Source: an uncultured bacterium (lineage in GTDB: Bacteria; Patescibacteriota; Minisyncoccia; Moranbacterales; UBA2206). Taken from it: a DNA stretch of 64,000 bases. The DNA lies in assembly GCA_903831805.1 (NCBI GenBank), contig CAIKZD010000017.1, positions 12,358 to 76,357 on the forward strand, given 5' to 3'. Positions 62,222 through 63,628 of this stretch are shown here, one piece after another. Position 1 is the first letter of the stretch; every line of letters begins with the position of its first letter. The notes under the pieces are model-generated. The model searched no databases, was not told where the DNA came from, and saw only the letters and a program-made list of their open reading frames with translations. Made by a program: the position numbers and the translations under genes.

Positions 62222-63628
62222 ATGAAAAATATCGGAAAAATCACACAAGTTATCGGGCCGGTAGTGGATGTGGAATTCGCGGATGGGTTGCCGAAGATTT
62301 ATGACGCGCTGGAAATCGACCTTAAGGGCGAACGGTCCGCCGAGTACGGCGAACAGTCCGCTTCAAAATTGATTCTCGAGACTCATCAGCACACTGGCGG
62401 AAACAAAGTCAGAGCCGTGGCCATGGGGTCAACTGATGGATTGCGTCGTGGGATGGAAGTGACGGATACTGGGTCAGCCATTTCGGTGCCGGTGGGCGCG
62501 GGCGTATTAGGCCGAATGTTTAACCTACTCGGTGAAACGATTGATGGGATTGAAGCGCCGGTGAAATCGGAAAGAAGAGATCCGATCCATCGCGACGCGC
62601 CAAGATTTGAAGATCAATCGACGCAAGCCGAAATTTTGGAAACCGGCATTAAAGTCATCGACCTCATTTGTCCATTCGTGAAAGGTGGGAAAGTCGGACT
62701 GTTCGGTGGTGCGGGCGTGGGTAAAACCGTGGTCATTCAGGAACTCATTCGTAATATTGCGGCGGTGCATGGCGGCTATTCCATTTTCGCTGGCGTGGGA
62801 GAACGGACGCGAGAAGGGAATGATTTATACCATGAAATGAAAGAGTCGGGCGTGCTGGACAAGACTGCTTTGGTCTTTGGCCAGATGAACGAGCCACCAG
62901 GAGCCAGACAGCGTATCGCTCTTTCAGCCCTCACCATGGCGGAATATTTCCGGGACACGGAAGGCAAAGACGTATTGTTCTTTGTGGATAATATTTTCCG
63001 TTTCACTCAGGCCGGCTCGGAAGTATCAGCTCTCCTCGGTCGCATTCCATCAGCCGTGGGCTATCAACCAACCTTGGCGGAAGAGATGGGAAGATTGCAG
63101 GAAAGAATTACTTCGACCAAAAAAGGTTCAGTCACCTCGGTGCAGGCGGTGTATGTGCCGGCCGACGATCTCACCGACCCGGCGCCAGCCACTACTTTTG
63201 GCCATTTGGATTCCACCGTGGTGTTGTCGCGCGGACTGTCAGAGCTCGGAATTTATCCAGCCGTGGATCCATTGGATTCATCTTCGACTATTCTTGATCC
63301 GAAAATCGTGGGCGAAGAACATTATAACGTGGCGCGCGGCGTGCAGAAAGTTTTGCAAAGATATAAAGATTTGCAAGACATCATTGCTATTCTCGGCATG
63401 GAAGAATTGTCCGATGAAGACCGCGTGATTGTGGCGCGCGCGCGCAAAGTGCAGAAGTTCCTGTCTCAACCTTTCTTTGTGGCCGAACAGTTCACTGGTA
63501 CTCCTGGCAAATATGTGAAACTGGCTGACACCATCAAATCGTTCAAGCTGATTTTGGAAGGAGCTTATGACGAAATGCCGGAGCAGGAGTTTTATATGAA
63601 AGGCAGCCTGGAAGAAATCAAAAAATAA
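62222..63628 (+). CDS. atpD: F0F1 ATP synthase subunit beta, with a 12-codon repeat-derived insertion in the N-terminal barrel
   Basis: [10 protein letters not shown]-loop and DELSEED-like region. The N-terminus has an extra [12 protein letters not shown] relative to canonical beta subunits. Confidence 0.95.
62327..62362. repeat. 36-bp GGCGAACGGTCCGC-N8-GCGAACAGTCCGCT element inserted in frame in atpD
   Basis: Differs at 3 positions from the intergenic copy 7511..7546; its centre is CCG-AGTA-CGG. Confidence 0.75.

Follow-up and report, generated by a model that had tools for sequence, protein, structure and literature searches.

An in-frame hairpin repeat in a variable turn of the ATP synthase beta subunit of a Candidatus Moranbacteria genome

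The 64,000-nucleotide stretch of contig CAIKZD010000017.1 analysed here (hereafter the window) carries, within atpD, the gene for the F1 ATP synthase beta subunit, a short hairpin-forming repeat of which a nearly identical copy lies between two other genes. The atpD segment is probably a selfish or neutral repeat, resembling repetitive extragenic palindromes (REPs) and Rickettsia palindromic elements (RPEs), that is native to Candidatus Moranbacteria and tolerated in a permissive, presumably surface-exposed loop of the protein. Judging from aligned alleles of related genomes, this turn of AtpD is a recurrent insertion hotspot, and the recurrence of many repeat families at one site is the unusual part of the finding. 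The proteins that match the window AtpD best carry the names Candidatus Moranbacteria or Parcubacteria, and the host is accordingly a member of Candidatus Moranbacteria in the candidate phyla radiation (CPR); the GC content of the window is ~44%.

The repeat and the AtpD turn that it occupies

The gene, the two copies and a relative of the repeat are located in the window as follows.

62222..63628, + strand: atpD, F1 ATP synthase beta subunit, 468 aa, an open reading frame (ORF) matching PDB 2qe7_D with E=6.8e-211
62327..62362, + strand: hairpin repeat, atpD copy, reading GGCGAACGGTCCGCCGAGTACGGCGAACAGTCCGCT; in frame, 12 codons
7511..7546, + strand: hairpin repeat, intergenic copy between gatB and miaA, reading GGCGAACGGTCCGCTGATTACAGCGAACAGTCCGCT, with loop TGATTACA
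17708..17736, + strand: perfect-stem relative of the repeat, CGGACTGTCCGC-AAGGA-GCGGACAGTCCG, with a 12-bp perfect stem followed by CTTTTCG; terminator-like

The homologues of this AtpD are annotated with the Pfam families ATP-synt_ab_N/ATP-synt_ab. An earlier reading of the sequence alone had reported the two near-identical copies, and their coordinates proved exact: 33 of the 36 positions match, and none of 100 dinucleotide-preserving shuffles of the window contained two copies with three or fewer mismatches. The 13-mer GCGAACRGTCCGC, allowing up to two mismatches, occurs eight times in the window against an expectation of 2.2 +/- 1.6. The intergenic copy was described as downstream of miaA, and it does lie 21 nt beyond the miaA stop; gatB (5330..6895, + strand) and miaA (7568..8617, - strand) are convergent, however, so that the copy sits between two gene ends and the stop in question is on the other strand.

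The repeat measures 34-36 nt, with a core at 62328-62361 that reads GCGAACGGTCCGC-CGAGTACG-GCGAACAGTCCGC in the atpD copy. Its description as a 36-bp palindrome holds insofar as it can form a hairpin, but it is built of two direct copies of the 13-mer GCGAAC[G/A]GTCCGC rather than being a plain palindrome. Each 13-mer differs little from the perfect palindrome GCGGACNGTCCGC, and the two direct-repeat arms can therefore pair, in the predicted fold.(((.((.((.(((((....))))).)).)).))). with 13 pairs, three mismatches and a 4-nt loop. The folding energies are -9.8 kcal/mol (DNA) and -15.9 kcal/mol (RNA) for the atpD copy and -8.6 and -14.4 kcal/mol, respectively, for the copy at 7511, while the complementary strand folds more stably (-12.1 kcal/mol) because two A.C mismatches turn into G.T pairs. 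The differences between the copies, going from atpD to 7511, comprise a compensatory exchange of the pair C15:G22 for T15:A22 and a change of the loop from AGTA to ATTA.

The third hairpin had been read as a palindromic relative forming a terminator at 17704-17736. A hairpin is indeed present, at 17708-17736, and with its 12-bp stem, AAGGA loop and short T run it is terminator-like; it contains the perfect form GCGGACAGTCCGC, its DNA fold has an energy of -16.9 kcal/mol (z = -6.6), and its second arm is identical to that of a subfamily with 5-nt loops in related contigs. An ORF for a PemK/MazF-like toxin (17749-18168) lies directly downstream of it. A terminator scan of both strands called neither the atpD copy nor the 7511 copy an intrinsic terminator, and this role is not supported for either. 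Rfam 15 gave zero matches at gathering scores over the whole window and only chance-level hairpin matches at E<=1 around atpD.

Alignment of the N-terminal region of the best 120 AtpD relatives, 82-95% identical to the window protein, revealed two kinds of allele (loop counts are over 119 of them). In 52 of the 119 (~44%) a stretch of nine residues, EIKL-ENGE-K, with a turn of four residues, lies between YDAL and LVLET, whereas the other 67 have 12-26 residues there, which amounts to 3-17 extra. The window loop has 19 residues, 14 of which replace ENGE, and so the net gain over the empty-site alleles (457-459 aa, turn ENGE) is 10; the 12-residue excess claimed earlier was right as to the loop and wrong as to the size. 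The nearest relatives, with 94-95% AtpD identity (P0002, P0003, P0005, P0008), are without the insert.

In an AlphaFold2 (AF2) model, residues 28-33 and 49-59 form strands and residues 34-48 a coil, with a predicted local distance difference test (pLDDT) score below 50 at 37-46; the model as a whole is of low quality (mean pLDDT 58, from a shallow alignment), and only its N-terminal barrel, which is confident, was used. As modelled, the insert is the turn of a beta-hairpin in that barrel, and the ORF, the homologue alignment and the predicted strands together bear out the in-frame insertion there. Solved F1 structures vary in this loop, the window loop being 10 residues longer than that of Bacillus TA2.A1 and four longer than a PS3-like beta subunit, and loop length varies across bacteria generally. 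The length of the atpD copy preserves the frame, its in-frame codons include no stop, and we infer that the repeat is translated as a loop 10 residues longer.

Family members and other occupants of the turn

Metagenome contigs were scanned for the exact pattern, which gave 88 stretches. The high-GC matches were set aside as unrelated tandem repeats, and the low-GC ones (0.38-0.46), on contigs that resemble Moranbacteria, have the same arms and the same mismatches as the window element. The family thus described has arms GCGAACGGTCCGC and GCGRACAGTCCGC, 5 or 8 nt apart, and copies of 31-36 nt in which the loops vary while the stems are kept. One subfamily has 8-nt loops (TGATTACA, TGAATACA or TGAGTACA) and occurs in the contigs L095, L119, L140, L155 and L162, of which L095 and L119 come from the same Joint Genome Institute (JGI) sample as L112, a contig bearing atpD; the other has 5-nt loops and GCGGACAGTCCGC as its second arm (L109, L122, L143 twice, L147, L157 and L173 three times). 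In L140 and L155 an inverted second copy lies ~12 nt upstream, like a REPIN doublet. At least 12 copies were found in related contigs, all of them at or outside ORF boundaries in AT-rich DNA except those in atpD, and a dispersed hairpin family with intergenic copies, as first proposed, is thereby upheld. Viral contigs yielded no copy of the element. In L173 the 5-nt-loop hairpin is present in two inverted copies (4944-5010; inverted copy at ~9330-9400) that flank a tandem array of TTGGCCAGTCCGC (x5) that shares AGTCCGC with the arm, which suggests local amplification from the arm of the element.

The AtpD turn proved to be filled by other sequences as well. Among the 119 relatives, the enlarged loops comprise at least six recurrent, mutually unrelated types and ~10 singletons. 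The recurrent types, named by their residues, are as follows.

ERSA/GQSA (family of the window element): 4 relatives
PASSAD/G: 18 relatives
DSAQGK/ARDK: 12 relatives
AASAEATAS: 10 relatives
GHxxSKG: 6 relatives
GTKSPxGDLVP: 5 relatives

Every insert for which DNA was obtained is a GC-rich hairpin or palindrome. These occupants range from -9.5 to -36 kcal/mol and are unrelated in sequence and length, while the empty sites are unstructured (-1.3 to -3.5 kcal/mol); all allele lengths at the hotspot are multiples of three. Of the first 600 candidates of an AtpD search of genome contigs, which were taken up by distant phyla, L007, L008 and L019 were useful loci. The following occupants illustrate the range.

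L019 AtpD loop: a single GCGGACAGTCCGC
L090 AtpD loop: GCGAACGGTCCGC-CGACA-GCGGACAGTCCGC
L008 AtpD loop: GGGACTAAGTCCCC-AATT-GGGGACTTAGTCCC
L087 AtpD loop: GGACACTCGGTGTCC-AAAG-GGACACCAAGTGTCC
L088 and L180 hairpin: CCCGCC-TCNTC-GGCGG

Several of these hairpins recur outside the turn. The hairpin of the L008 loop is also found in frame in atpG of the same contig (LGTKSPIGDLVPK), with a longer stem. The PASSAD hairpin occupies a second AtpD loop in L088 and L180, the first loop in L019, and lies in frame in atpC of L001. In L087, GCGGACAGTCCGC arms stand between atpF and atpH, while the AtpD loop of that contig holds another family. The AtpD loop of P0088, GVELPSGSSTP, is the peptide of a 15-bp-stem hairpin in the window miaA. 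A second, minor hotspot follows VDVEF in AtpD.

A neighbour-joining tree of AtpD, built from residue 60 to the end so that the loop was left out, showed the insert types to be scattered (polyphyletic), with each type recurring in distant clades. The tree neighbours of the window protein (P0002, P0003, P0004, P0005 and P0008) each have another loop or none, and P0093, which bears the same insert, belongs to a distant clade. The sequence-only reading had presented the insert as a colonisation of a conserved protein; the event is not unique, the turn being a hotspot at which 67 of the 119 relatives have loops enlarged by hairpin-derived inserts of many unrelated sequences. Filled, empty and differently filled alleles can be set side by side, a natural experiment on the movement of such repeats and on their absorption by essential proteins.

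Origin of the insert and its known analogues

Comparison with L001, the contig that encodes P0093 (84% amino acid identity), bears directly on the age of the insert. The two atpD genes are 75.4% identical in DNA and 48.7% at third codon positions, yet the element is identical at 35 of 35 positions; the longest other identical run is 20 nt, and on either side of the element identity falls at once to background. Given the divergence of the gene as a whole, 35/35 identity would be expected with P ~5e-5, or 2e-4 when third positions alone are taken. The same pattern holds for a second family: atpD of L185 and L008 is 73% identical, the hairpin arms are identical at 28 of 28 positions, and the loop alone differs. 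Relatives with the same residues at the ordinary divergence of the gene had been named beforehand as the sign of an old, immobile feature; what was found is one distant relative with the same insert and an unchanged element, an outcome in favour of the earlier reading. Because such identity lies inside a 75%-identical gene, ancient vertical inheritance under drift does not fit the atpD element as sequenced. Nor do these comparisons establish that the insertion is very recent: in every assembly examined both copies are fixed, the nearest lineages without the insert are ~17-19% diverged in atpD DNA, and 3 of 36 positions separate the copies of the window.

On the explanation that we favour, the repeat would have been copied and pasted from another genomic copy into the AtpD turn, and the insert would have persisted because the loop tolerates extra residues. 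Transposition in trans by some enzyme could achieve this, as could templated copying where a fork has stalled or a break has formed, perhaps aided by short microhomology. The hotspot itself may result from strong purifying selection elsewhere in AtpD, perhaps together with a preference for AT-rich or hairpin-bearing targets. GGCGA occurs both in the empty-site codons AAT GGC GAG of L089 and at the 5′ end of the element, a single comparison that hints at microhomology. Ten unassigned ORFs of the window contained no transposase or nuclease by Pfam. An IS200-like Y1_Tnp gene is present in L087 (1611-2060, - strand), whose AtpD is 95% identical; it is flanked by hairpins CCCCGGGGCAAGCCCACGGGG, different from the window repeat, one of which extends the 3′ end of a neighbouring aminoacyl-tRNA synthetase gene by 12 residues (NEAPRGKPTGYQ).

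Several results weigh against this explanation. No target-site duplication or flank consensus was seen around ~20 copies, and in the 64-kb window neither a tblastn search with the Y1_Tnp of L087 nor Pfam on the ten ORFs turned up a Y1/HUH transposase. The window itself holds only two copies and one perfect-stem relative. Inside ORFs of the low-GC contigs, the family was met in atpD only (window, L001, L090, L019), which could mean spread between atpD alleles or selection there. The identity of the arms across hosts 25% apart could likewise reflect functional constraint instead of recent movement. Finally, no empty-site variant of atpD or of the 7511 locus appeared in four to six independent assemblies, so that mobility is read from comparison between lineages only.

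A wider proposal, which we regard as a minority prospect, is that Candidatus Moranbacteria, and perhaps other CPR bacteria, harbour a novel class of intragenic mobile hairpins of 13-50 nt, copied and pasted into the same AtpD codon position and into loops of AtpG, AtpC, MiaA, MiaB, TatD and Tgt. Within this proposal the same families occur at the same site in distant lineages and the elements would therefore have a site preference, for instance for turns that are AT-rich or for hairpins already in place, beyond any filtering of random insertions by selection.

Several rival explanations were considered. The insert may have arisen once in an atpD allele and spread among co-occurring Moranbacteria by homologous recombination or gene conversion as a cassette, the intergenic copy being secondary; this would account for the unvarying codon phase of the element in four AtpD lineages that are divergent (window, L001, L090, L019), for the absence of the family from any other ORF in the metagenome scan and for the recurrence of every insert type in distant clades. 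It is nonetheless unlikely, since no flanking tract moved along with the element between the window and L001, where a longest other run of 20 nt at 75% identity makes a poor substrate for homologous recombination, since at least 12 intergenic copies have identical arms in differing contexts, and since other hairpin families lie in atpG, atpC and miaA besides atpD. A selected function at the site, with the peptide as a by-product, was judged about as improbable: the hairpin would, as an mRNA structure, tune the translation of atpD or the decay of its mRNA, act as a pause site, or be bound by a protein with GCGRACNGTCCGC as its recognition sequence. Dimer-binding sites are often near-palindromic, as the 13-mers are; the arms, mismatches included, are invariant across copies and hosts, with compensatory changes in the stem, and more than half of the relatives have some hairpin here, ~105-140 nt into the ORF. 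Yet 44% of the relatives, very close ones included, have no hairpin, the occupants are unrelated in sequence, length and stability, the spacing of the 13-mers is 18 or 21 bp so that helical phase is not kept, no Rfam family matches, and unrelated enzymes have hairpins of the same kinds in arbitrary loops.

An ancient, vertically inherited loop extension that was lost many times, with the likeness to the intergenic copy due to convergence or secondary copying, has in its favour the similar length of beta loops in other bacteria, the PS3-like one being only four residues shorter. The identity of the element in L001 effectively refutes it, and the polyphyletic spread, the other inserts in the nearest relatives and the many intergenic family members leave it very little room. 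Least credible of all is an assembly or binning artefact, a repeat-induced chimera of the kind that short GC-rich hairpins may cause locally in metagenomes. The identical, insert-bearing AtpD recurs on at least 18 contigs, six of these places coming from six different ENA samples under more than one assembler naming scheme; a JGI contig is 99.8% identical over 4148 nt with the element included; four assemblies agree at 100% over 3288 nt around and including the intergenic copy; and the frame of an essential gene is preserved. Since the same allele recurs in independent assemblies, assembly error, the other outcome that had been set against the sequence-only reading, is excluded.

Taken as a mobile or once-mobile repeat, the element is closest in function to the RPEs. 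These are dispersed hairpin repeats of a small AT-rich genome, many of which lie in frame in unrelated housekeeping genes and add peptide segments at sites compatible with the protein fold, with no associated transposase (Ogata et al. 2000 Science 290:347, as recounted in PMC10969869); the passages on them in PMC10969869 give a length of ~100-150 bp, ten sequence families and a confinement to Rickettsia. The present insert is likewise a dispersed hairpin, and its frame, the allele lengths and the predicted coil fit the RPE trait of in-frame read-through at a permissive site. It differs in its size class (13-50 nt here) and its CPR host, and by this length and host, rather than by sequence comparison with an RPE consensus, it is set apart from RPE families 1-10. 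That one codon position is hit repeatedly by many families is not mentioned in the RPE passages of PMC10969869.

REP/REPIN sequences, mobilised by REP-associated tyrosine transposases (RAYTs), are imperfect palindromes of 20-40 nt, mainly extragenic and linked with Y1/HUH transposases (PMC3116915, PMC3733652), with GTAG or CGTC at one end (PMC3733652). The present family resembles them in size, in an imperfect stem with conserved mismatches, in its intergenic bias, in being kept within a lineage and in the inverted doublets of L140 and L155. Unlike them, it lacks GTAG/CGTC in the element and has neither consistently in its flanks; the window contains no RAYT gene. REPs are extragenic by definition, whereas the hairpins described here often lie within ORFs and would be translated. 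Nor is it a miniature inverted-repeat transposable element (MITE; 50-500 bp, terminal inverted repeats, target-site duplication), at 31-36 nt and without a duplication. In yeast mitochondria, GC clusters are described in PMC4464245, in part after Hudspeth et al. 1984 cited there, as short GC-rich palindromes, mostly intergenic in AT-rich DNA, some of which lie in frame in VAR1/rps3 (and also in rRNA), alter the size of the product and vary by strain; they are, however, organellar and of other families, and VAR1 is a fast-evolving, low-complexity protein, not a conserved enzyme. Hairpin elements of fungal and sponge mitochondria invade independently as several families, occasionally entering coding sequence and rRNA variable regions (PMC2800124), but these too are organellar, and insertions in protein genes are rare there.

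In the full-text literature searched, no account of in-frame hairpin repeats from CPR or Patescibacteria turned up. The best-documented selfish hairpins that lie in frame are those of Rickettsia and fungal mitochondria, whereas the present ones are far shorter and occur at high density in a CPR genome. They offer a possible gauge of how much CPR protein-length variation comes from this source, and for CPR genomes the alignments, phylogenetic markers and homology models are open to distortion by such inserts.

Other inserts, repeats and neighbouring genes

At least eight in-frame hairpin inserts occur in the 64 kb, and those in tatD, miaA, miaB and tgt were confirmed by comparison with homologues. 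Besides the atpD copy, they include the following.

8351..8395, - strand: double hairpin in frame in miaA, loop CGAGTACA, peptide PSPLYSGETSRCTRRDRGG; the solved MiaA structure PDB 3d3q has nothing that corresponds to residues 72-97
7929..7963, - strand: 15-bp perfect-stem hairpin in frame in miaA (GSSTPLMGVELP)
12724..12808, - strand: in miaB, three in-frame hairpins with GAGTAC/GTACTC loops; compared with PDB 7mjz, MiaB has residues 223-254 in addition
13043..13162, - strand: MITE-like inverted-repeat element (TGTCATTCTGAGCG...), ~120 nt, in the miaB reading frame
37819..37868, + strand: GAGTAC-loop copy in frame in ileS (EPLRPFGTHPLSTGEGE), 9 aa longer than PDB 9w01 in a variable region
44197..44220, + strand: hairpin in tgt with a 10-bp stem and loop AGTA, in a ~32-aa extra segment (residues 296-331 against 4 residues in PDB 6ygm)
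55758..55807, + strand: double GAGTAC-loop hairpin in frame in tatD (GTPPSRVRDTSPEYRGG); 18-aa insert absent from the TatD of L087 and L089

The codon alignment of tatD revealed a pure insertion of 18 residues, and the ileS copy is probably an in-frame insert too. The GAGTAC loop (AGTA closed by G:C) recurs on differing stems at 8351-8395, 12736-12808, 13131-13148, 37845-37862, 44197-44220, 55117-55134, 55764-55803 and 62336-62353, the last being the atpD copy. Perfect stems of at least 4 bp flank 7 of the 15 occurrences of GAGTAC, against 0.56% for all hexamers, and a loop conserved on stems as variable as these is at odds with simple copying from a single master element.

A MITE-like family of ~120-160 nt with inverted ends TTGTCATTCTGAGCGAAGC...GCTTCGCTCAGAATGACAA has copies at 13043-13162, 25192-25357, 35216-35366, 46878-47039, 55006-55148 and 62013-62170. 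One copy lies in the miaB frame, one in the spacer between atpG and atpD and one adjoining the ileS start, and a further one is the apparent N-terminal extension of ORF 45806..47062. AT-rich repeats AATTTTCAAT/AAATTTCAAA are found at 30377-30435, 45095-45165, 60146-60216 and 63628-63744, after several genes including atpA and atpD; that at 63628-63744 is a 58-nt inverted repeat right after the atpD stop.

The atpG-atpD spacer (61173-62221) measures ~1 kb, which is unusually long for an atp operon, and its content differs between relatives. In the window it holds repeats and a minus-strand ORF of 93-109 aa (61476..61805) with no Pfam match; in L087 (8799-10000) it holds a DUF559/MTES_1575 gene with a Vsr-like endonuclease fold, and in L089, L088 and L180 other small ORFs. 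Downstream of atpC, the contigs L002-L004, L088, L089, L179, L180 and L185 share a conserved cluster with the Pfam families Oxidored_q6, Proton_antipo_M, NADHdh and Complex1_30kDa/49kDa/NiFeSe_Hases, which by its domain content looks like a membrane-bound hydrogenase or complex-I-like module, notable for a CPR genome. At 8784-12014 of the window, a 1076-aa ORF contains at least six tandem 174-nt (58-aa) repeats (…SIVQTTDGGYAxAGYTxSYGAG…); in other assemblies it is annotated as DUF5122/fn3/CarboxypepD_reg, and the product is probably a large surface protein.

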